A stretch of 64,000 nt of DNA from Desulfobacterales bacterium (GTDB lineage: Bacteria; Desulfobacterota; Desulfobacteria; Desulfobacterales; UBA5852). Both the position numbers and the translations under genes were made by a program. Positions 7,846 to 30,273 of the stretch are shown in pieces. Where the stretch lies: the NCBI GenBank assembly GCA_963674755.2, contig CAXXVS010000002.1:864001-928000 (forward strand), given 5' to 3'. The notes under the pieces are model-generated. The model did not search any database. It was not told the origin of the DNA and was given only the letters and a program-made list of their open reading frames with translations. Position 1 is the first letter of the stretch. Every line of letters begins with the position of its first letter.

Positions 7846-8958
7846 ATGGTCAACAAGAAGACAAGCAAGCCCAAAGCAGCAAGCAACGAGGGCACCGCGG
7901 CGAATCGCTCCCACGCAGCCCAAAAGAAGCCCGCGACTGGGAAAAAGAGCGGTTCGGCTGCCAAGAAACCCAAGGCGGCCGAGGGCAAGAAAAAGCTGGC
8001 GGAAAAGCCGGACGTACTTGAACCCGAAGTGATCCCGGTGCCCCCGCTTGGCAAGGAAAAGAAAAAGAAGAGCACCGATTCGGAAAAAGCGCTGGTTAAA
8101 TTCGATCCGTTGCAGCGCTACCTTTCGGAGATCAGTACCTATCGGCTGCTGACCCGGGATGAAGAAAGGGAACTGGGAATCCGCGTGCGCGAGCAGGGCG
8201 ACAAGGAGGCTGCCTACGCCCTGGTGACTTCCAATCTGCGGCTGGTGGTAAAAATTGCGCTCGAGTTTCAACGCGTCTGGATGCAAAACCTGCTGGATTT
8301 GATCCAAGAGGGCAATATCGGTCTGATGCAGGCGGTGCGCAAGTTCGATCCTTATAAAAACGTGAAGTTTTCTTACTACGCTTCCTTCTGGATCAAAGCC
8401 TATATTTTAAAATTTATCATGGACAATTGGCGGCTGGTCAAAATCGGAACGACCCAAGGCCAGCGCAAATTGTTTTTCAAGCTGAAAAAGGAAAAACAAA
8501 AGCTCATCGAGCAGGGATTCGACCCCAAACCGAAACTGCTTTCGGAGCGGTTGGGCGTATCCGAGCGGGAAATCGTCGACATGGATCAACGTCTGGACGG
8601 CTGGGATGTTTCGCTCGACGCCCCCCTGAAGGACGATTCGGATACGGAGCGGATAGAATTTTTAAGCACCGAAGCCGTTTCGGCGGAAGACAAGGTTGCC
8701 AAAAAAGAAATCGAAGTTCTGCTTCACAACAAAATTGACGAATTCCGCAAAAATATGACTGATCGGGAAAAAGAGATCTTTGATTTGCGCATTTTTTCGG
8801 ACACCCCGGTAACCCTGCAGGAAATCGGTGATCGTTACGGTATCAGCCGGGAACGTGTACGGCAGGTCGAAAAGAATATCATCAAGAAAATGCGGGAGTT
8901 TTTCAAGCAGGAAATCCCTGATTTCTCCGCTTACACGGAAGGCCAGACAGCGGACTAG
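7846..8958 (+). CDS. rpoH: RNA polymerase sigma-32 family factor
   Basis: Region 2 motifs SNLRLVVKIA and DLIQEGNIGLMQAVRKFDP; RpoH box TTQGQRKLFFKL; region 4 TLQEIGDRYGISRERVRQVE. Confidence 0.88.
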   Translation: MVNKKTSKPKAASNEGTAANRSHAAQKKPATGKKSGSAAKKPKAAEGKKKLAEKPDVLEPEVIPVPPLGKEKKKKSTDSEKALVKFDPLQRYLSEISTYRLLTRDEERELGIRVREQGDKEAAYALVTSNLRLVVKIALEFQRVWMQNLLDLIQEGNIGLMQAVRKFDPYKNVKFSYYASFWIKAYILKFIMDNWRLVKIGTTQGQRKLFFKLKKEKQKLIEQGFDPKPKLLSERLGVSEREIVDMDQRLDGWDVSLDAPLKDDSDTERIEFLSTEAVSAEDKVAKKEIEVLLHNKIDEFRKNMTDREKEIFDLRIFSDTPVTLQEIGDRYGISRERVRQVEKNIIKKMREFFKQEIPDFSAYTEGQTAD

Positions 8959-21105: not shown

Positions 21106-21900
21106 ATGACCTACAGCAACATCACCTTCGACGTCCAGGACAGGCTGGCCATCGTGACGTTCAACCGCCCCAAGGCGCTGAATGCCCTCAATCGCGCGTT
21201 GCTGGATGAATTCGCCCAAGCCCTCGATCAGGTCGAGGCCAGCGAAGAGATCCGCGTTCTGGTGCTCACCGGGAGCGGTGACAAGGCCTTTGTGGCCGGG
21301 GCCGACATCACCGAGATCAATCAGTTGGGACCGTTGGGGGCCAAGCAATTTGCCCGCCGGGGCATGGATACCATCAATCGACTGACCCAGTTGCCCATTC
21401 CGGTCATTGCGGCGGTCAACGGCTACGCCTTGGGGGGCGGCACGGAAATGGCCCTGGCCTGCGATTTCGTCTATGCGGCCGAGACGGCCCAGTTCGGACT
21501 GCCGGAAATCACCCTGGGTATCATTCCGGGGTTCGGCGGAACCCAACGGCTGTCCCGCCTCATCGGAGCCAACATGGCCCGGGAAATGATCTATACCGGC
21601 AAGATGATCGCTGCGGCCGAAGCCCTGCGTCTGGGAATCGTCAACAAGGTTTGCGCACCGGACCAATTGATGGCCGATGTTGAGAAGACGGTTGCCGCCA
21701 TCGCCCAAAAGGGGCGTGTGGCCCTGCGGGCCGCCAAACAGGCCATCAACAACGGACTGAATGTCGATCTGGCATCGGGCCTGGCTTTGGAAAACGATGC
21801 CTTTGCCCTTTGCCTGGCCAGTCCCGATGCCTATGAGGGCACGAGCGCCTTCCTGGAAAAACGCAAGGCGGACTTTACGGGAACCTTGAACGACGGCTAA
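21106..21900 (+). CDS. Enoyl-CoA hydratase (crotonase)
   Basis: NRPKALNAL, AFVAGADI, NGYALGGGTE and PEITLGIIPGFGGTQRL motifs; both catalytic Glu present. Confidence 0.92.
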   Translation: MTYSNITFDVQDRLAIVTFNRPKALNALNRALLDEFAQALDQVEASEEIRVLVLTGSGDKAFVAGADITEINQLGPLGAKQFARRGMDTINRLTQLPIPVIAAVNGYALGGGTEMALACDFVYAAETAQFGLPEITLGIIPGFGGTQRLSRLIGANMAREMIYTGKMIAAAEALRLGIVNKVCAPDQLMADVEKTVAAIAQKGRVALRAAKQAINNGLNVDLASGLALENDAFALCLASPDAYEGTSAFLEKRKADFTGTLNDG

Positions 21901-22025: not shown

Positions 22026-22054
22026 TTGACAGGCGCAATGACATCCGCTATGCA
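22026..22054 (+). promoter_or_regulatory. sigma70 promoter of the paaK leader
   Basis: TTGACA-N17-TATGCA about 30 nt upstream of the leader ATG. Confidence 0.65.
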
Positions 22055-22086
22055 GACAAAAACACTTCATCAGCCGGACACAATCC

Positions 22087-22173
22087 ATGATGAACGCGCG
22101 TATCTACTTTTATTTTTTTGGCTTTTGCGGGGGCTTTCACTTTAGGAAGTCCACCCGTGAGCCGTCATCGTAG
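22087..22173 (+). CDS. Phe/Tyr-rich attenuator leader peptide (28 aa)
   Basis: MMNARIYFYFFGFCGGFHFRKSTREPSS*; 6 Phe (all TTT) and 2 Tyr within 13 codons. Confidence 0.8.
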   Translation: MMNARIYFYFFGFCGGFHFRKSTREPSS

Positions 22174-22196
22174 ATACCGCCGACAACACGATTGAC

Positions 22197-22241
22197 AAGA
22201 CCATGGGGGGACGAAAGAAACCAACCCATGGTCTTTTTTTT
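22197..22241 (+). terminator. Intrinsic terminator of the attenuator
   Basis: 11-bp stem AAGACCATGGG/CCCATGGTCTT running into a T8 tract, between the leader peptide and paaK. Confidence 0.85.
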
Positions 22242-22358
22242 GGGCTGCGGGTTGCCGACCTGGCAGCTTTTTTTACGGCCGCGCCATTGGTTAACGCCCG
22301 CGCCGATGCGACATCGCTATGTTGATCTCTGATGGGTCTGAAAAGGAGGAAGACGTCC

Positions 22359-23660
<1,302 letters not shown>

Positions 23661-23670
23661 GGAGGCAACC

Positions 23671-24102
23671 ATGCGAGCAGAACAGATATCTGTTTTTTTG
23701 GAAAACAAGGCCGGCCGGTTATGCGAGGTAACGGGCGTGCTGGCCGAAGCCCAGGTCAATATTCGCGCCCTGGCCCTGGCCGACACGTCGGATTTCGGCG
23801 TGCTGCGGTTGATTGTAGACCAAGCTGAAAAGGCCAAGGAAGCCCTTAAAAAAGCCGGATTCACCGTGGGCAAGACCAACGTATTGGCTGTGGAAGTACC
23901 CGACCGCCCCGGCGGATTGTACGAAATTCTCAACCTTCTTCAGACCAACAACATCAACGTGGAATATATGTACGCCTTCGTCCAGCAGAGCGGCAGCAAT
24001 GCCGTTATGATATTCCGCTTCGACAATACGGACGAAGCGCTCCGGGTCATTCAGCAAAACGGGTTGCGGGTGATCGACGGACAGACCCTTTACGGCATGT
24101 AG
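23671..24102 (+). CDS. Tandem ACT-domain (amino acid-binding) protein
   Basis: QISVFLENKAGRL, PDRPGGL and NVEYMYAF motifs, typical of the paaK partner; GGAGG RBS. Confidence 0.88.
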   Translation: MRAEQISVFLENKAGRLCEVTGVLAEAQVNIRALALADTSDFGVLRLIVDQAEKAKEALKKAGFTVGKTNVLAVEVPDRPGGLYEILNLLQTNNINVEYMYAFVQQSGSNAVMIFRFDNTDEALRVIQQNGLRVIDGQTLYGM

Positions 24103-24240: not shown

Positions 24241-25392
24241 ATGGCACATCGAAGTGTTAAGTTCGTGATAGCTGTCCTGATCATCAGTTTGGTTGCGATT
24301 CCGGCCGCAATGGCCGAATCCGTCAAAATCGGTGCGATTCTGGCGGTCACCGGGCCGGCATCCTTTCTCGGTGGTCCGGAGGCACGGACCCTTGAAATGC
24401 TGGTGGAGCAAACCAATGCTGCCGGGGGCATCAACGGCATGCCGGTCGAGTTGATCATCAAGGATTCCGGTGCCAATCCGGAAAAAGCGATTTCCTTTGC
24501 CAAACAACTCATCGAAGAAGACCAGGTGGCCGTCGTGTTGGGTCCCACAACCTCCGGTGAGACCATGAAAGTCAAGAAGATCTTCGAGCAGGCCCAGACG
24601 CCGCTGATTTCCTGTGCCGCAGCCGAGGTGATCGTCAATCCGGTGGCACAATACGTTTTCAAGACCCCCCAGAAAGACTCCTTTGCCGCCCAGAAAATCT
24701 TTCAGACCATGAAGGCCATGGGCATTTCCAAAATTGCCGTTCTGGCGGGCAATACCGGCTTCGGCAAAGCCGGCCGCCAGCAACTGCTCAAACTCGCGCC
24801 TGAAATGGGCATCCAAGTGGTCGAAGATGAAGTTTACGACAAGGGCTCCAAGGATTTATCGGCCGTGGTGGCCAAGCTCAAAGCCAACCCGGATGTCCAG
24901 GCAGTGGTCAACTGGTCCATCGTCCCGGCCCAGGCCATCGTGGCCAAGAATATGCGCCAGGCCGGATGGGACGTGCCCCTGTTTCAGAGCCACGGATTCG
25001 GCAATATCAAATATGTCGAAACCGCGGGGGCGGCGGCCGAAGGCATCATCTTCCCGGCCGGTCGGCTGCTGGTTGCCGATCAACTGCCGGCGAGCAACCC
25101 CCAGAAAGCCCTGCTGATGGATTACATCGCCGCCTATGAAGGCCGTTACAAGGAAGCGGTCTCGACCTTCGGCGGACACGCTTACGATGCTTTCATCATC
25201 GCCAAGACCGCCATCGAAAAGGCCGGTACGGACAAGGCCAAAATCCGGGAAGCGATCGAAAACATCAAAGATCTGCCGGGCACCGGCGGCGTGTTCAGCT
25301 TTTCGGCGGAGGACCACAACGGTCTGGATATCGACTCCTTCGAGATGATCACCGTAAAGGACGGCAAGTTCGTTCCGTACAAGGGGATGTAA
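24241..25392 (+). CDS. Liv-type ABC transporter substrate-binding protein
   Basis: Signal peptide; VKIGAILAVTGPASFLG and AAGGING motifs; GGAGG RBS. Confidence 0.9.
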   Translation: MAHRSVKFVIAVLIISLVAIPAAMAESVKIGAILAVTGPASFLGGPEARTLEMLVEQTNAAGGINGMPVELIIKDSGANPEKAISFAKQLIEEDQVAVVLGPTTSGETMKVKKIFEQAQTPLISCAAAEVIVNPVAQYVFKTPQKDSFAAQKIFQTMKAMGISKIAVLAGNTGFGKAGRQQLLKLAPEMGIQVVEDEVYDKGSKDLSAVVAKLKANPDVQAVVNWSIVPAQAIVAKNMRQAGWDVPLFQSHGFGNIKYVETAGAAAEGIIFPAGRLLVADQLPASNPQKALLMDYIAAYEGRYKEAVSTFGGHAYDAFIIAKTAIEKAGTDKAKIREAIENIKDLPGTGGVFSFSAEDHNGLDIDSFEMITVKDGKFVPYKGM

Positions 25393-25437
25393 TCCGCCAA
25401 GCGGCGGTCTTTAAAAGGGCCGTCCTGTCGTATGGAT

Positions 25438-25497
25438 AGGGGCCGGGAGTGGCCGGCCCCTTTGCTGCTTTTGCAAGCCCCCGGACGAGGCTTTTTT
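25438..25497 (+). terminator. Hairpin plus weak terminator after the binding-protein gene
   Basis: AGGGGCCGG/CCGGCCCCT stem, then AAGCC..GGCTT with T tract. Confidence 0.5.
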
Positions 25498-25531
25498 GTC
25501 CGGCGTTTGCGCAACGCTATCGGCTGCCCCC

Positions 25532-26422
25532 ATGACCGCTGAACTGTTCATCCAGTATCTCTTCGCCGGCATTACCTATGGTGCGATCTACGCCATCGTG
25601 GCCATCGGTTTCAATATCATTTACAACACCACCGGCATCATCAATTTCGCCCAGGGTGAGTTTGTCATGCTGGGCGGCATGATCTCAATTTCACTTTTGC
25701 CCTATATGCCGCTTTGGATCGCGATTGCCATTGCCGTGGTCGTGACGATGGTTTGCGGAGGGCTGATAGAAATCTGCTTCATCCGTTGGCTGGAGAATCC
25801 GGGGGTTTTGCGGATGGTTATCATCACCATCGGATTATCCATCCTGATCCGCGAAGCCGCCCTGCATATCTGGGGCGAGTCCATCCGTTCGCTGCCCTAT
25901 TTTATCGGCGACGAAATCACCACCGTAGCTATTTTAGGCGCACGGATTTCTCCTCAAGTGCTATGGGTCATCGGCGCCTGCGGGTTGATGGTGCTTTTCC
26001 TGAGCGTTTTCTTCCAAACCACTTCGGCCGGAAGGCAGATGCGGGCCTGCGCGGCCAATCGCAAGGCAGCCCTTCTATGCGGGATCAACACCCGCAATAT
26101 GGTCACCCTGTCTTTCATGCTCAGCGCCGGTATCGGGGCCCTGGCCGGATGCGTCATGTCACCCATTACTTCCACCCAATACGATATCGGAACGGGCCTG
26201 GCGATCAAGGGCTTTACCGTGGCGATCCTGGGAGGGTTGGGCAACTCCATGGCGGCCGTAGGCGCCGGGCTGGTGCTTGGCATTCTGGAAGCCTTCTCCA
26301 TTTCGGTGGTCCCCCTGGCCTTCAAGGATGCCATTGCGATCTTTATTTTGCTGCTGATTCTTTTTGTGCGCCCTTACGGTCTTTTCGGCTCGCGCATGGT
26401 GGCCGGATTGAAGGAGTTTTGA
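25532..26422 (+). CDS. Liv-type ABC permease (LivH-like)
   Basis: IINFAQGEFVMLG, GRQMRA and ILGGLG motifs. Confidence 0.9.
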   Translation: MTAELFIQYLFAGITYGAIYAIVAIGFNIIYNTTGIINFAQGEFVMLGGMISISLLPYMPLWIAIAIAVVVTMVCGGLIEICFIRWLENPGVLRMVIITIGLSILIREAALHIWGESIRSLPYFIGDEITTVAILGARISPQVLWVIGACGLMVLFLSVFFQTTSAGRQMRACAANRKAALLCGINTRNMVTLSFMLSAGIGALAGCVMSPITSTQYDIGTGLAIKGFTVAILGGLGNSMAAVGAGLVLGILEAFSISVVPLAFKDAIAIFILLLILFVRPYGLFGSRMVAGLKEF

Positions 26423-26424
26423 CG

Positions 26425-27507
26425 ATGAAGAAAATGCTCCCCCTGGCAGTGTTGCTTCTCATCGTCGTTACCGTCCAACAAATCACCGCCTGGAGCGACA
26501 CCCGTTTCTACCTCACCCAATTGACCATGGCAGCCTACTACGCTTTGCTGATCATCGGGCTGTGTGTCGTGATGGGGTACGCCGGTCAGATCTCCCTTGG
26601 CCATGCCGGTTTTTTCGCCATCGGCGGGTATCTGTCCGCCGCGTTGACCACACGGAATCTGGTGGCTTACAGCGGCAGCGGATTCATCAAAGCCCTCGAT
26701 GCGCTAGGCCTGCTGGTGGCTGGCCAGGATATTTACGGTGACGCCCTCCTGGTAGTCAACCCATGGGCGGCCTGTATCGTGGCGGTATTGACCGCGGGCA
26801 TCATTGCCTGGATGCTGGGCATACCGGTACTCAAACTCAAGGGGCATTACCTGGCCATGGCAACCCTGGGATTCGGAATCATCGTCTACCGCATCGTGCT
26901 GGCCAGCGCTTACTTCGGCGAAGCGGACGGTATCTCCGAAGTGCCGGCCTTCCCCCTGATCTTCGGTCTCAGGGTGAGCGGCGATTTCGGGGCCCGGGAG
27001 CAAAACTATTACATCGCCTGGGGGTTGCTCATCATTGGCATGGTCCTGCTGCGGAACCTGATCGACAGCCGGGTGGGCCGGGCGTTACGTTCGATTCACG
27101 GATCCGAGGAGGCGGCCGATTCGGTGGGCGTCAACACGGCGCGCTTCAAATTGCAGGTGTTCGTGCTGTCGGCGGTTTTTGCCGCCCTGGCCGGCGTCTT
27201 CATGACCCATTACAACGGCGGCATCGGACCGTCTGAGGCCGGGGTTATGAAATCCGTACGTTATGTGGCTATTGTGGCGGTGGGGGGCATGGCCCATCTC
27301 TGGGGGGCCCTGATCATGGGGATCGTTCTCAATTTTCTATCCCTCAGGGGAGTTTTCGGCTCCTACGACGACGCGGTGTTCGGGGCGATTCTGATTGCCA
27401 TCATGCTGTTTGCGCCCAACGGTATTCTAAGCCTGAACTGGCGCGGAACCCTGGGGGGGCTGCTGAGGCTGCCCGGCCGGCGACAGGACGCGGGGAGGGG
27501 AGCCTGA
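26425..27507 (+). CDS. Liv-type ABC permease (LivM-like)
   Basis: GYAGQISLGHAGFFAIGGY, LKGHYLAMATLGF and SRVGRAL motifs; start reassigned to MKKML. Confidence 0.9.
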   Translation: MKKMLPLAVLLLIVVTVQQITAWSDTRFYLTQLTMAAYYALLIIGLCVVMGYAGQISLGHAGFFAIGGYLSAALTTRNLVAYSGSGFIKALDALGLLVAGQDIYGDALLVVNPWAACIVAVLTAGIIAWMLGIPVLKLKGHYLAMATLGFGIIVYRIVLASAYFGEADGISEVPAFPLIFGLRVSGDFGAREQNYYIAWGLLIIGMVLLRNLIDSRVGRALRSIHGSEEAADSVGVNTARFKLQVFVLSAVFAALAGVFMTHYNGGIGPSEAGVMKSVRYVAIVAVGGMAHLWGALIMGIVLNFLSLRGVFGSYDDAVFGAILIAIMLFAPNGILSLNWRGTLGGLLRLPGRRQDAGRGA

Positions 27508-28262
27508 TGGCGCTGCTCGAAGTATCCCACCTGCACAAGAAATTCGGCGGCCTGCATGCGGTCAACGACGTCTCTTTTGCTGTCGAGAAGGGGATCATCA
27601 AATCCGTCATCGGACCCAACGGGGCCGGCAAGACGACCCTCTTCAACCTTATTACGGGCGCCCTCACGGCCACTTCCGGGCAGGTGGCCTTCGACGGCCA
27701 GGATATCCAGGGGCGCAAGCCGCACCAGATCGCGGCCTGCGGGATCGCGCGGACTTTTCAGAATATCAAGCTCTTTCACGACATGACTGCCCTGGAAAAT
27801 GTCATGGTAGGGCGTCACCTGCGCAGCCGGGCCGGCTTTGTGGCCTCCATGCTGCACATGCCCTGGACGTTTAAAGAAGAAAGGGCCATCCGGGATAAAT
27901 CCATCGCGTTACTCGAATTGCTGGAGATCGCGGCTTATGCCGACGTGGACGCCGCCAGTCTGGCGTTCGGTCAGCAGCGGGCCGTCGAGTTTGCCCGCGC
28001 TCTGGCGCTGGAACCGACTCTGCTGCTGCTGGATGAGCCGGCCGCCGGACTGAATATGCAGGAAACCGTCGAAATCGGCCGGTTGATCACCAGGATCCGG
28101 GATCTCGGCATTACCGTCCTGCTTGTGGAACACGATATGTCTCTGGTAATGGATATATCCGATGAAATCGTGGTGCTGAGCTTTGGCCAGAAAATTGCCG
28201 ACGATGTCCCCACGGCCATCCAGAACCATTCGGAAGTGATCAAGGTCTACCTTGGTGCTTAG
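27507..28262 (+). CDS. Liv-type ABC ATPase (LivG-like)
   Basis: [25 protein letters not shown] and VEHDM motifs. Confidence 0.92.
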
Positions 28263-28277
28263 GAATCCGGCCGCGTT

Positions 28278-29018
28278 ATGTTGAAGATCCGCAATCTCCA
28301 GTCCGGCTATGGCAAGCTGAAGGTCCTCAAGAACGTCTCCATGCACGTGGAAGAGGGGGAGATCGTCACCATTATCGGGGCCAACGGAGCGGGCAAGACC
28401 ACCTTGCTGTCCACCATCGCCGGTCTGATCCGTGCCACTTCAGGGGAGATGGTGTTCAAGGGGCGGAACATCGACGGGATGGCGCCCCAGAAGATTCCCG
28501 CCCTGGGCTGTGTCATGGTTCCCGAAGGCCGACAGGTATTCGCCCCCCTTTCCGTCGAGGAGAACTTGATCCTGGGGGGGCACATCTTAAAGAAAGAGGG
28601 ACGTCCGACGCTGGAGCGGCAACTGGAAACGCAGTATGCTCTGTTTCCCATTTTAAAGGAACGCCGGAACCAGTATGCCGGTACGCTTTCCGGTGGTGAG
28701 CAGCAGATGCTGGCCATGGCCCGTGCGTTGATGTCCAAACCGGCGCTGATCATGATGGACGAGCCGTCCACCGGACTGGCGCCGCTCATCGTACAGGATA
28801 TTTTCAGGGTCATCGTCCAGTTGCGCGACGAGGGCAAAACCGTGCTGCTGGTGGAACAGAATGCCAAGGCGGCGCTCCAGGTGGCGGATCGGGGCTACGT
28901 GTTTGAAACCGGCCAAGTGGTTCTGCAGGGCAGCGCCCCTGAACTGCTGGAAGATGAAGAAGTCAAACGGGCTTATCTTGGAAAGGATTACGGAGAATTC
29001 TATGATGGAAAAGCCTGA
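28278..29018 (+). CDS. Liv-type ABC ATPase (LivF-like)
   Basis: GANGAGKTT, VPEGR, LSGGEQQM and VEQN motifs. Confidence 0.92.
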   Translation: MLKIRNLQSGYGKLKVLKNVSMHVEEGEIVTIIGANGAGKTTLLSTIAGLIRATSGEMVFKGRNIDGMAPQKIPALGCVMVPEGRQVFAPLSVEENLILGGHILKKEGRPTLERQLETQYALFPILKERRNQYAGTLSGGEQQMLAMARALMSKPALIMMDEPSTGLAPLIVQDIFRVIVQLRDEGKTVLLVEQNAKAALQVADRGYVFETGQVVLQGSAPELLEDEEVKRAYLGKDYGEFYDGKA

Positions 29019-30273
29019 CACCCATGTTTGCATCCCCGCCGATCGCAGCCAGATGGTGCTGGAGCGTCTGCAAAGCACCCTGAATCGCGCTTTCCGCAAT
29101 GTGTCCTTTCATCGGCAACGTTTCCAGGAAAAGGGGATCGACCCGTCCAATATCCAAGCCCTCGACGATATTCGGCGGCTGCCCTTTACAACCCGTCAGC
29201 ATCTCAGTGAAAATTACCCCTACGGCCTGTTTGCCGTGCCCCTGCGCGATATCGTGCGCATTCATACGGCCCCGGGAACCACGGCCAATCCCACGGTCAG
29301 CGGGTATACGCGACAGGATCTCGGCATATGGGAGAGCATGGTGGCCACGGCCCTGCGCAGCTCCGGGGTAACACCCGACGATATTCTGCAGATCAGTCTG
29401 GATCCAGGCCTGGCGACCTGGGGGCGCGACTACCAAAGCGGCGCGGAGACCCTGGGGGCCAGTGTCATCCCCAACACCCTCATGTCCGTCGAAAAACAGG
29501 TCATGGTCATGCGGGACTATAAGCCTTCCACCCTGGTGACAACCCCATCCTATGCCCAGCAACTGGCGGCTCATTTGGAAAACAAAGGGCTGGATCCCAA
29601 CGGGTTCAGCCTCCAGAAACTGATCTTGGTCGGTGAGCCGGCAAGTCCCGAGCAACGGGATTTCCTGGAAGACAAGCTGCAAGTGCGCACCTGGCAGCAT
29701 TTCGGCTTGAGCGAGGTTCCCGGACCGGCCCTGGCCTATGAATGTGAAACCCGGTCCTGCCTGCACGTCAACGACGATCATTTCCTGCCGGAAATTATCG
29801 ATCCTGTTACGGGAGAAGTCCTTCCGATGGGTCACGTCGGGGAGCTTGTGTTGACGACCCTGACCACCCGCGCCTATCCTTTGATCCGGTTCCGGACGGG
29901 CGACATGGCCCGCATCCTGCCCGATGCCTGCGATTGTGACTGCCGCCTGGTGCGCATCGAATGGCGCCCCGAGCGCAGCGACCGGCTGCTCCGGATAAGG
30001 GGCGTCAAGGTCCACGAGCAACAGATCCTCTCCGGCATTGAAAAGGCCCTGGGCATGGCGCCCCAACACGCCTGCATGTTCGAAAACCGCTATCGCGAAA
30101 AGATTTTTCTCGAAATCTGGATTGCCGTGGACAAGGCACTGTTCTCGGACGAAATCAAGATGCTCGAAGCCCGCATGAAAACCGTTCGCGATCAGGTCCA
30201 GGAGGACACGGGGGTTCCGGTAATCGTTCGCCTCAAGGAATGGGCCTCCATCGTTGCCTGCAAATTGGCATAG
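29002..30273 (+). CDS. Second, divergent phenylacetate-CoA ligase-family protein
   Basis: Colinear with PaaK (NYPYGLFAVP, GLSEV, PEIIDP, RFRTGD) but with altered P-loop and C-terminus. Confidence 0.8.
   Translation: MMEKPDTHVCIPADRSQMVLERLQSTLNRAFRNVSFHRQRFQEKGIDPSNIQALDDIRRLPFTTRQHLSENYPYGLFAVPLRDIVRIHTAPGTTANPTVSGYTRQDLGIWESMVATALRSSGVTPDDILQISLDPGLATWGRDYQSGAETLGASVIPNTLMSVEKQVMVMRDYKPSTLVTTPSYAQQLAAHLENKGLDPNGFSLQKLILVGEPASPEQRDFLEDKLQVRTWQHFGLSEVPGPALAYECETRSCLHVNDDHFLPEIIDPVTGEVLPMGHVGELVLTTLTTRAYPLIRFRTGDMARILPDACDCDCRLVRIEWRPERSDRLLRIRGVKVHEQQILSGIEKALGMAPQHACMFENRYREKIFLEIWIAVDKALFSDEIKMLEARMKTVRDQVQEDTGVPVIVRLKEWASIVACKLA

Follow-up and report, generated by a model that had tools for sequence, protein, structure and literature searches.

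A predicted six-segment, ribosome-coupled attenuator with phenylalanine codons upstream of a paaK operon in Desulfobacterales and its probable role in aryl-acid salvage

Why should a paaK-type gene, widely annotated under phenylacetate degradation, stand behind a leader peptide rich in phenylalanine codons? In a 64,000-nt stretch of DNA from a Desulfobacterales bacterium (the window), an earlier note had described a complete attenuator of the trp/pheA type in front of such a gene, and had called this control unexpected on a catabolic gene. Our overall reading, which we hold to be likely, is that a ribosome-coupled six-segment attenuator controls an operon of paaK, an ACT-domain gene, an ABC importer and a second paaK-like gene (paaK2), and that the operon salvages aryl acids to phenylalanine (Table 1). 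The attenuator part of this reading, taken by itself, is very probable on comparative sequence evidence.

Table 1. Features of the paaK locus in the window and related leaders elsewhere in the same genome
Feature	Position	Strand	Remarks
Putative sigma70-type promoter	22026..22054	+	-35 TTGACA (22026-31), 17-nt spacer, weak -10 TATGCA (22049-54)
Leader peptide ORF	22087..22173	+	28 codons, with 6 Phe and 2 Tyr as control codons between 22105 and 22143
Segment 1	22129..22138	+	pairs with segment 2; within helix 22120-22163 in the window copy
Segment 2	22145..22159	+	partner 1 or 3; predicted to be covered by the ribosome at the leader stop
Segment 3	22197..22212	+	partner 2 or 4
Segment 4 and first U tract	22222..22241	+	U tract 22234-22241 (8 U) after 3:4
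Segments 5 and 6 and U tract	22243..22274	+	hairpin 22243-22268, U 22268-22274; also found by terminator scan
paaK-type phenylacetate-CoA ligase	22359..23660	+	TIGR02155 648.7 bits, cut-off 646.3
ACT-domain protein	23671..24102	+	weak ACT matches; PDB 2f06 E 1.6e-29
Liv-type ABC importer	24241..29018	+	binding protein, two permeases, two ATPases
Second paaK-like CoA ligase (paaK2)	28996..30273	+	TIGR02155 326 bits, below cut-off
Own genome, DAHP synthase leader (Phe/Tyr)	C3:567412-567590	-	
Own genome, DAHP synthase leader (Phe), pheA next	C2:661288-661445	+	
Own genome, DAHP synthase leader (Trp)	C2:571420-571602	+	
Own genome, Trp leader ORF (three Trp codons)	C1:590611-590760	+	before iorA2-iorB2 and TRAP-like transporter genes

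The leader ORF of the window copy reads as the earlier note had given it, with all six Phe codons being UUU and with the six Phe and two Tyr codons packed into 13 codons. Under the codon frequencies of the genome, the probability of at least eight Phe/Tyr codons per 13 is 2.5e-7 (for one chosen 13-codon stretch), and that of six UUU among six Phe codons is 0.003, the genome-wide UUU share of Phe codons being 38%. The leader stop codon lies 22 nt past the start of segment 2, and the ribosome-binding site of the leader is weak. The putative promoter was not called by a consensus scan, and its -10 box matches at three of six positions. Its -35 box, which had also been pointed out before, recurs as an exact TTGACA 70-190 nt 5' of segment 2 in 44 of 47 homologues, compared with 44 of 1100 control windows, and each of these 44 homologues carries a T at +17 from TTGACA.

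Helices 1:2, 2:3 and 3:4 and the eight U after 3:4 were found where they had been placed earlier, with energies of -10.6, -13.7 and -18.3 kcal/mol for the three helices in the window copy, where 1:2 lengthens to the helix 22120-22163 (-23.8 kcal/mol). The palindrome CCATGG is a core repeated in segments 2-4. A folding check of the kind named in the earlier note gave a z of -3.99 for 22026-22260, which beat all of 200 shuffles (0/200 equal), and folds with masked RNA switched between 2:3 and 3:4. The claim that the element is complete at 22241 did not hold, since a further hairpin with its own U tract (5:6) had been missed. Segment 5 can also pair with segment 4, and in the window copy the best 4:5 fold (-14.8) equals 5:6 (-14.2), while a 2:5 pairing rivals 4:5 and would likewise break 5:6. 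Because the 5:6 hairpin with its U tract and the opposing helix 4:5 add to 1:2, 2:3 and 3:4, the device appears to have six segments in a cascade of the his-leader kind, its window copy bearing tandem terminators; in this cascade 4:5 would serve as a second antiterminator opposing 5:6 and 3:4 possibly as the first terminator.

For comparison, 80 paaK loci were taken from named records (Desulfobacterales, Desulfobacteraceae and Syntrophobacteraceae by title) and 30 further loci from relatives, giving 96 distinct upstream regions in total, and a motif search of these regions returned 52 candidates. Alignment A1 contains 47 of them (L041 and L052 were re-placed); L059, L068 and L101 (within coding DNA), L024 (truncated) and L098 (insertion) were left out. 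In 46 of the 47 homologues the automatic picker chose a leader ORF, whose frame is richer in aromatic codons than both other frames in 40 of the 46 and whose stop lies just 5' of segment 2 or about 22-28 nt past the start of that segment, save in three wrongly picked rows. The A1 leaders hold 302 Phe, 48 Tyr and 16 Trp codons, and the Trp count is inflated because the automatic picker took a wrong frame in L047, L052 and L106 (it found no ORF in L030). The check that the earlier note had suggested, a search for a Phe-rich upstream ORF and a terminator with covariation before paaK orthologs, found the element conserved in these homologues.

In A1, helix 1:2 is paired in 77.5% of cells, with both-side changes in 5 of 10 pairs, helix 2:3 in 95.2% (5 of 12 pairs), helix 3:4 in 90.3%, and helix 5:6 in 92.9%, with both-side changes in 8 of 9 pairs, the most of all helices. 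RNAalifold, unaided, chooses 2:3 and 5:6. At least six U within 8 nt follow 5:6 in 41 of the 47 rows and 3:4 in 26, and 5:6 with its U tract is the best-conserved terminator of the element. Helix 4:5 is paired in 89.6% of cells in these paaK leaders, with both-side changes in only 1 of 9 pairs, and a single G in segment 5 lacks a partner in segment 6 in 14 of the 47 rows, but lacks one in segment 4 in just 3 of them. To test 4:5 independently, we used a second alignment, A2, of 87 matches from 87 loci, in which the aligning model does not contain 4:5, the window copy is the sole training row and one antisense-artefact row was kept. Here, 4:5 is paired in 93.4% of cells, with both-side changes in 5 of 9 pairs, and these changes number 23 compared with 7.6 in shuffles, while slid controls are at most 54% paired. 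The pair counts exceed all 500 shuffles in percent paired, changed cells and covariation score, and exceed the slid controls in percent paired and covariation score, with the caveat that kinship can inflate covariation counts and that related sequences may beat shuffles without any structure. With this reservation, helices 2:3, 4:5 and 5:6 carry compensatory changes.

Upstream of paaK, the model built on A1 finds a full match at 39 of the 80 loci, 37 of which are training rows, an eroded copy in three and no match in 38, many of which have an enoyl-CoA hydratase gene closely preceding paaK. Eroded copies (L018, L019, L025 and L029) consist of 5:6 alone or of segments 3-6, and in the latter the leader ORF between promoter and segment 3 is gone; at such loci paaK expression may be constitutively low. 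No Rfam family matched; up to E <= 10 the search gave one hit, isrK (14.4 bits, E 1.3), which we take to be due to chance. A T-box and translational control were considered and set aside, there being no T-box hit and the ribosome-binding site of paaK lying about 70 nt past the terminator.

Read-through of attenuators usually depends on the order of synthesis, and the ribosome footprint reaches about 13 nt beyond the A site. In the full transcript of the window copy at equilibrium 3:4 beats 2:3, and with segment 3 removed 5:6 beats 4:5 in 35 of 47 homologues, so that read-through would need kinetic trapping. In the folding model, RNA free from 22135-22145 gives a 2:3 probability of at least 0.99 up to 22222, before segment 4, and RNA free from 22140-22145 still gives 0.95-0.97 at 22232, while 3:4 forms when the RNA is free only from 22155 onward (segment 2 covered) or from 22120 or earlier. 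With the above footprint, a modelled stall at the second to fifth Phe codon favours 2:3, and with the ribosome at the first Tyr codon the long helix 22120-22163 stays free. Together with the codon counts above, the latter makes the proposed sensing of Tyr look minor, and comparison of leaders and helices strongly supports the proposed stalling-based attenuation on Phe codons.

From this anatomy, its conservation and the compensatory changes, we infer leader translation, stalling and kinetics as follows. When Phe is plentiful, the ribosome would reach the leader stop and cover segment 2, 3:4 and then 5:6 would form, and RNA polymerase would terminate at one of the two U tracts. When tRNA-Phe is uncharged, the ribosome would stall in the Phe run and block 1:2, 2:3 would form before segment 4 is synthesised, and segment 4 would then take segment 5, so that both terminators are prevented and the operon is transcribed. 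In two metatranscriptomes, a fraction of 0.09 of the words was present, in the form of assembled contigs; a 270-nt contig of a relative (run X1) spans 22099-22366, such contigs being strandless and without defined ends and possibly DNA.

If this element senses aromatic amino acids, which genes does it precede elsewhere? At E <= 0.01 (E-values being rough), the A1 model matches 124 of 151 genomes of the class and 78 of 151 genomes of the phylum. Counting the top matches and the next 40 class matches, 86 of 89 matches read in other genomes precede paaK, a binding-protein gene, a DAHP or ADH synthase gene or an aminotransferase gene, and their leaders are rich in aromatic codons. The first 49 top matches precede paaK (20), a binding protein (4), DAHP synthase (11), ADH synthase (3), a PRK06836 aminotransferase (8) and three genes left without a name, so that 46 of 49 stand before one of the gene types just listed; in this first set (53 loci), 21 downstream proteins were scanned against NCBIfam and the others were assigned by eye. 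The next 40 class matches precede paaK (9), a binding protein (4), ADH synthase (17), DAHP synthase together with pheA (9) and DAHP synthase Ia (1). Read by eye, the leader codons follow the target, with Phe runs before DAHP synthase-pheA, Phe-dominated leaders before paaK and a Tyr/Phe mix, often plus Trp, before ADH synthase, and pheA-type copies alter the repeated CCATGG core in several segments jointly.

In the genome of the window itself, the cascade precedes three DAHP synthases, two of the three scoring weakly with the model; these three leaders mirror, at the RNA level, the three-isoenzyme logic of E. coli. The Trp leader before the second iorAB pair carries a terminator-like hairpin with a U tract, which suggests Trp-controlled salvage of indoleacetate or indolepyruvate, and no obvious leader was seen by eye at the main iorA copy of this genome.

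The operon itself encodes a ligase whose matches to PDB phenylacetate-CoA ligases have E <= 5e-126, and paaK2 is 42% identical to it. The ACT gene lies downstream of paaK in 75 of the 80 loci, and its product may act as a feedback sensor of amino acids. By annotation the importer belongs to the branched-chain amino acid type. The aryl-acid binder CouP of R. palustris is among the closest solved structures of the importer's binding protein (140 bits, compared with at most 108 bits for entries named Leu/Ile/Val-binding), though by our reading the carboxylate-binding residues of CouP are only partly retained. Modelling the structure of this binding protein from its sequence alone gave a poor result (pLDDT 48.6), which was left unused for fold search. 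Many loci hold paaK-ACT with no importer gene within the fetched flank. An enoyl-CoA hydratase gene (21106-21900 in the window) lies upstream of paaK in 63 of the 80 loci.

Is paaK then catabolic here? A search of the own genome (97% complete) for two sets of ring-attacking enzymes, PaaA/C and BamA/Oah, found none of the former and none of the latter over cut-off. It encodes all parts of a salvage route, namely arylacetate-CoA ligase, indolepyruvate oxidoreductase (Ior; two IorA over cut-off) and an aminotransferase (PRK06836). Ior is present in 144 of 151 class genomes and hence does not discriminate, and none of the 80 loci has iorAB close to paaK. Among the proteins that D. multivorans forms specifically on phenylacetate are other ligases, while two PadJ/PaaK-like genes, which together cover eight locus tags, are listed simply as present (excerpt of PMC5109826). 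The tags 22990-23060 of this organism, which by tag spacing and identities would correspond to the paaK operon, are not listed in the supplement of that paper. An anabolic role has been argued for Ior and an AMP-forming arylacetate-CoA ligase in Bacteroides (excerpt of PMC13285125), and PMC4162585 (excerpt) cites a route by which Methanococcus maripaludis makes aromatic amino acids from aryl acids.

Because the regulon consists of aromatic-pathway genes and the genome lacks PaaA/C and BamA, paaK is probably anabolic, in the salvage of aryl acids to Phe. With regulon and genome content pointing this way, most of the surprise over Phe control of a supposedly catabolic gene dissolves. It is fairly likely that the operon imports phenylacetate-type acids, activates them to CoA esters and salvages them to Phe, and this is the best reading of the lack of PaaA/C and BamA/Oah hits, of IorA, the aminotransferase, the likeness to CouP and the literature on D. 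multivorans, Bacteroides and M. maripaludis. The imported acids would be activated to CoA esters, Ior would carboxylate these to arylpyruvates, and transamination would yield Phe and perhaps Tyr; substrate and direction of flux are what we infer here.

Other explanations must be set against this reading, one of which concerns the device. It could be a four-segment attenuator of the trp/pheA type, in which 3:4 and its U tract are regulated and the downstream hairpin is separate or a back-up. Such a layout would suit a window copy with 3:4 as its strongest helix (-18.3) and 8 U directly after it, the 26 of 47 homologues with at least six U after 3:4, and L228 and L175, which show no clear 5:6 hairpin in the alignment. 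However, an unregulated 5:6 terminator would stop read-through regardless of 2:3, and 5:6 has both the most compensatory changes and the better U tract (41/47). Moreover, at least L010, L011, L013, L096 and L097 combine 5:6 and its U with no U tract after 3:4, and 4:5 is conserved though it lies outside the alignment model. We therefore regard a four-segment device as improbable; of the trp/pheA layout first proposed, the helices stand and the completeness does not, as the conserved terminator is 5:6 and several homologues have no 3:4 U tract.

The attenuator could also be real while the importer carries Phe/Tyr or arylpyruvates and the ligase is put to another use, for instance in making a secondary product by way of arylacetyl-CoA or in reclaiming an overflow acid, with no net reductive carboxylation. 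The branched-chain annotation of the importer, the binding of 4-hydroxyphenylpyruvate by CouP (excerpt of PMC3610893), the frequent position of the cascade immediately before a binding-protein gene, the many paaK-ACT loci with no importer in the fetched flank and the unlinked iorAB are all compatible with this. Yet the ligase is the first regulated gene in the 39 full-element loci, a CoA ligase induced by Phe shortage best fits salvage, and the second iorAB is preceded by a Trp leader, and we consider direct import unlikely. Finally, paaK could be catabolic and the leader act otherwise, as a protein-bound palindrome array or in control by phenylacetate supply, the ORF being a by-product of U-rich RNA. 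The recurrence of the CCATGG core in segments 2-4, the enoyl-CoA hydratase gene in 63 of 80 loci and the growth of some Desulfobacteraceae on phenylacetate (excerpt of PMC5109826) could be read in this way. Against it, the start codon, frame and stop position of the leader are conserved, its codons track the target gene by eye (Phe before DAHP synthase-pheA, Tyr/Phe/Trp before ADH synthase), the repeated core has changed jointly across segments in pheA-type copies, and ring-degradation markers (PaaA/C, BamA/Oah) were not found in the 97%-complete genome. A catabolic operon with a leader of this kind is thus highly improbable.

How does the six-segment cascade compare with known systems? In the his leader, helices A:B, C:D and E:F alternate with B:C and D:E. 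Segments A-F with the terminator E+F are described for Salmonella/E. coli (excerpt of PMC10065794), and the paaK element would share this alternating-helix relay, with the last hairpin as the terminator and two helices in the read-through state; it differs in its Phe/Tyr rather than His codons, in a target that is not the his operon, in having no Rfam match and in a middle hairpin that often bears its own U tract. With pheL-pheA of Gammaproteobacteria (Rfam Phe_leader; excerpt of PMC3082878), it shares a short ORF of Phe codons followed by pause, antiterminator and terminator helices, and the predicted freeing of segment 2 by a stall on Phe. Unlike pheL-pheA, it has no Rfam match, six segments instead of four and tandem U tracts, and it targets a CoA ligase and an importer rather than chorismate mutase/prephenate dehydratase. 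As in the routes of M. maripaludis (PMC4162585) and Bacteroides (PMC13285125), an AMP-forming arylacetate-CoA ligase and Ior are proposed to lead towards amino acid synthesis. Here, in contrast, the ligase gene lies apart from the Ior genes and shares its operon with an ABC importer, and the direction is argued from regulation, through a starvation attenuator, rather than from biochemistry. The catabolic PaaK/PadJ enzymes of the paa (aerobic) and pad (anaerobic) pathways belong to the same enzyme family (TIGR02155 over cut-off), whereas the present genome is without PaaA/C and without BamA/Oah over cut-off, and the predicted signal is lack of Phe instead of presence of the substrate.

The mechanism is classical (general attenuation model, excerpt of PMC1183508), and the attenuator family and its paaK target were not found in the literature searched, a search whose scope did not include a broad attenuator survey that perhaps covers deltaproteobacteria. 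The chances seem about even that, across Desulfobacterota, one modular six-segment cascade is a general aromatic amino acid sensor whose codons are swapped (Phe; Tyr/Phe/Trp) and whose regulon exposes a CO2-fixing salvage route. If this is true, a starvation-induced salvage route (importer, PaaK, IorAB and aminotransferase) has so far gone unrecognised, sulfate reducers of sediment and soil would build Phe, Tyr and perhaps Trp from phenylacetate-type fermentation products, and tandem terminators would multiply the dynamic range. Regulation, used as evidence, would move a widely annotated 'phenylacetate degradation' gene to biosynthesis in a major anaerobic phylum. Sulfate reducers would then compete for aryl acids as building blocks, and counts of paaK and ior in metagenomes would therefore overstate the potential for aromatic degradation. 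An RNA family absent from Rfam would also mark aromatic-pathway genes, among them DAHP/ADH synthases, binding proteins and an otherwise unassigned aminotransferase family, and the natural series of one- or two-terminator attenuators would offer a test set for relay kinetics.

Several single loci deserve mention. In L151, L168 and L174, the cascade precedes genes with no NCBIfam match at 1e-25, the leaders of L151 and L168 being Phe-rich, and these genes are possibly new members of aromatic pathways. Two Desulfamplus loci (L062 and L065) have a leaderless paaK-ACT; downstream of it, at about 7985-8170, comes a cascade with a Phe leader, together with a gene for DAHP synthase. L171 carries two cascade copies (87-279 and 1501-1692) 1.4 kb apart, the first preceding a DAHP synthase gene. 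In the own genome, a cascade with an Ala-rich leader (L113; C3:1399692-1399821, minus strand) stands before an alanine-transaminase-like gene, whose best match, PRK08175, is below cut-off; it is a candidate alanine-sensing attenuator, which would be unusual.
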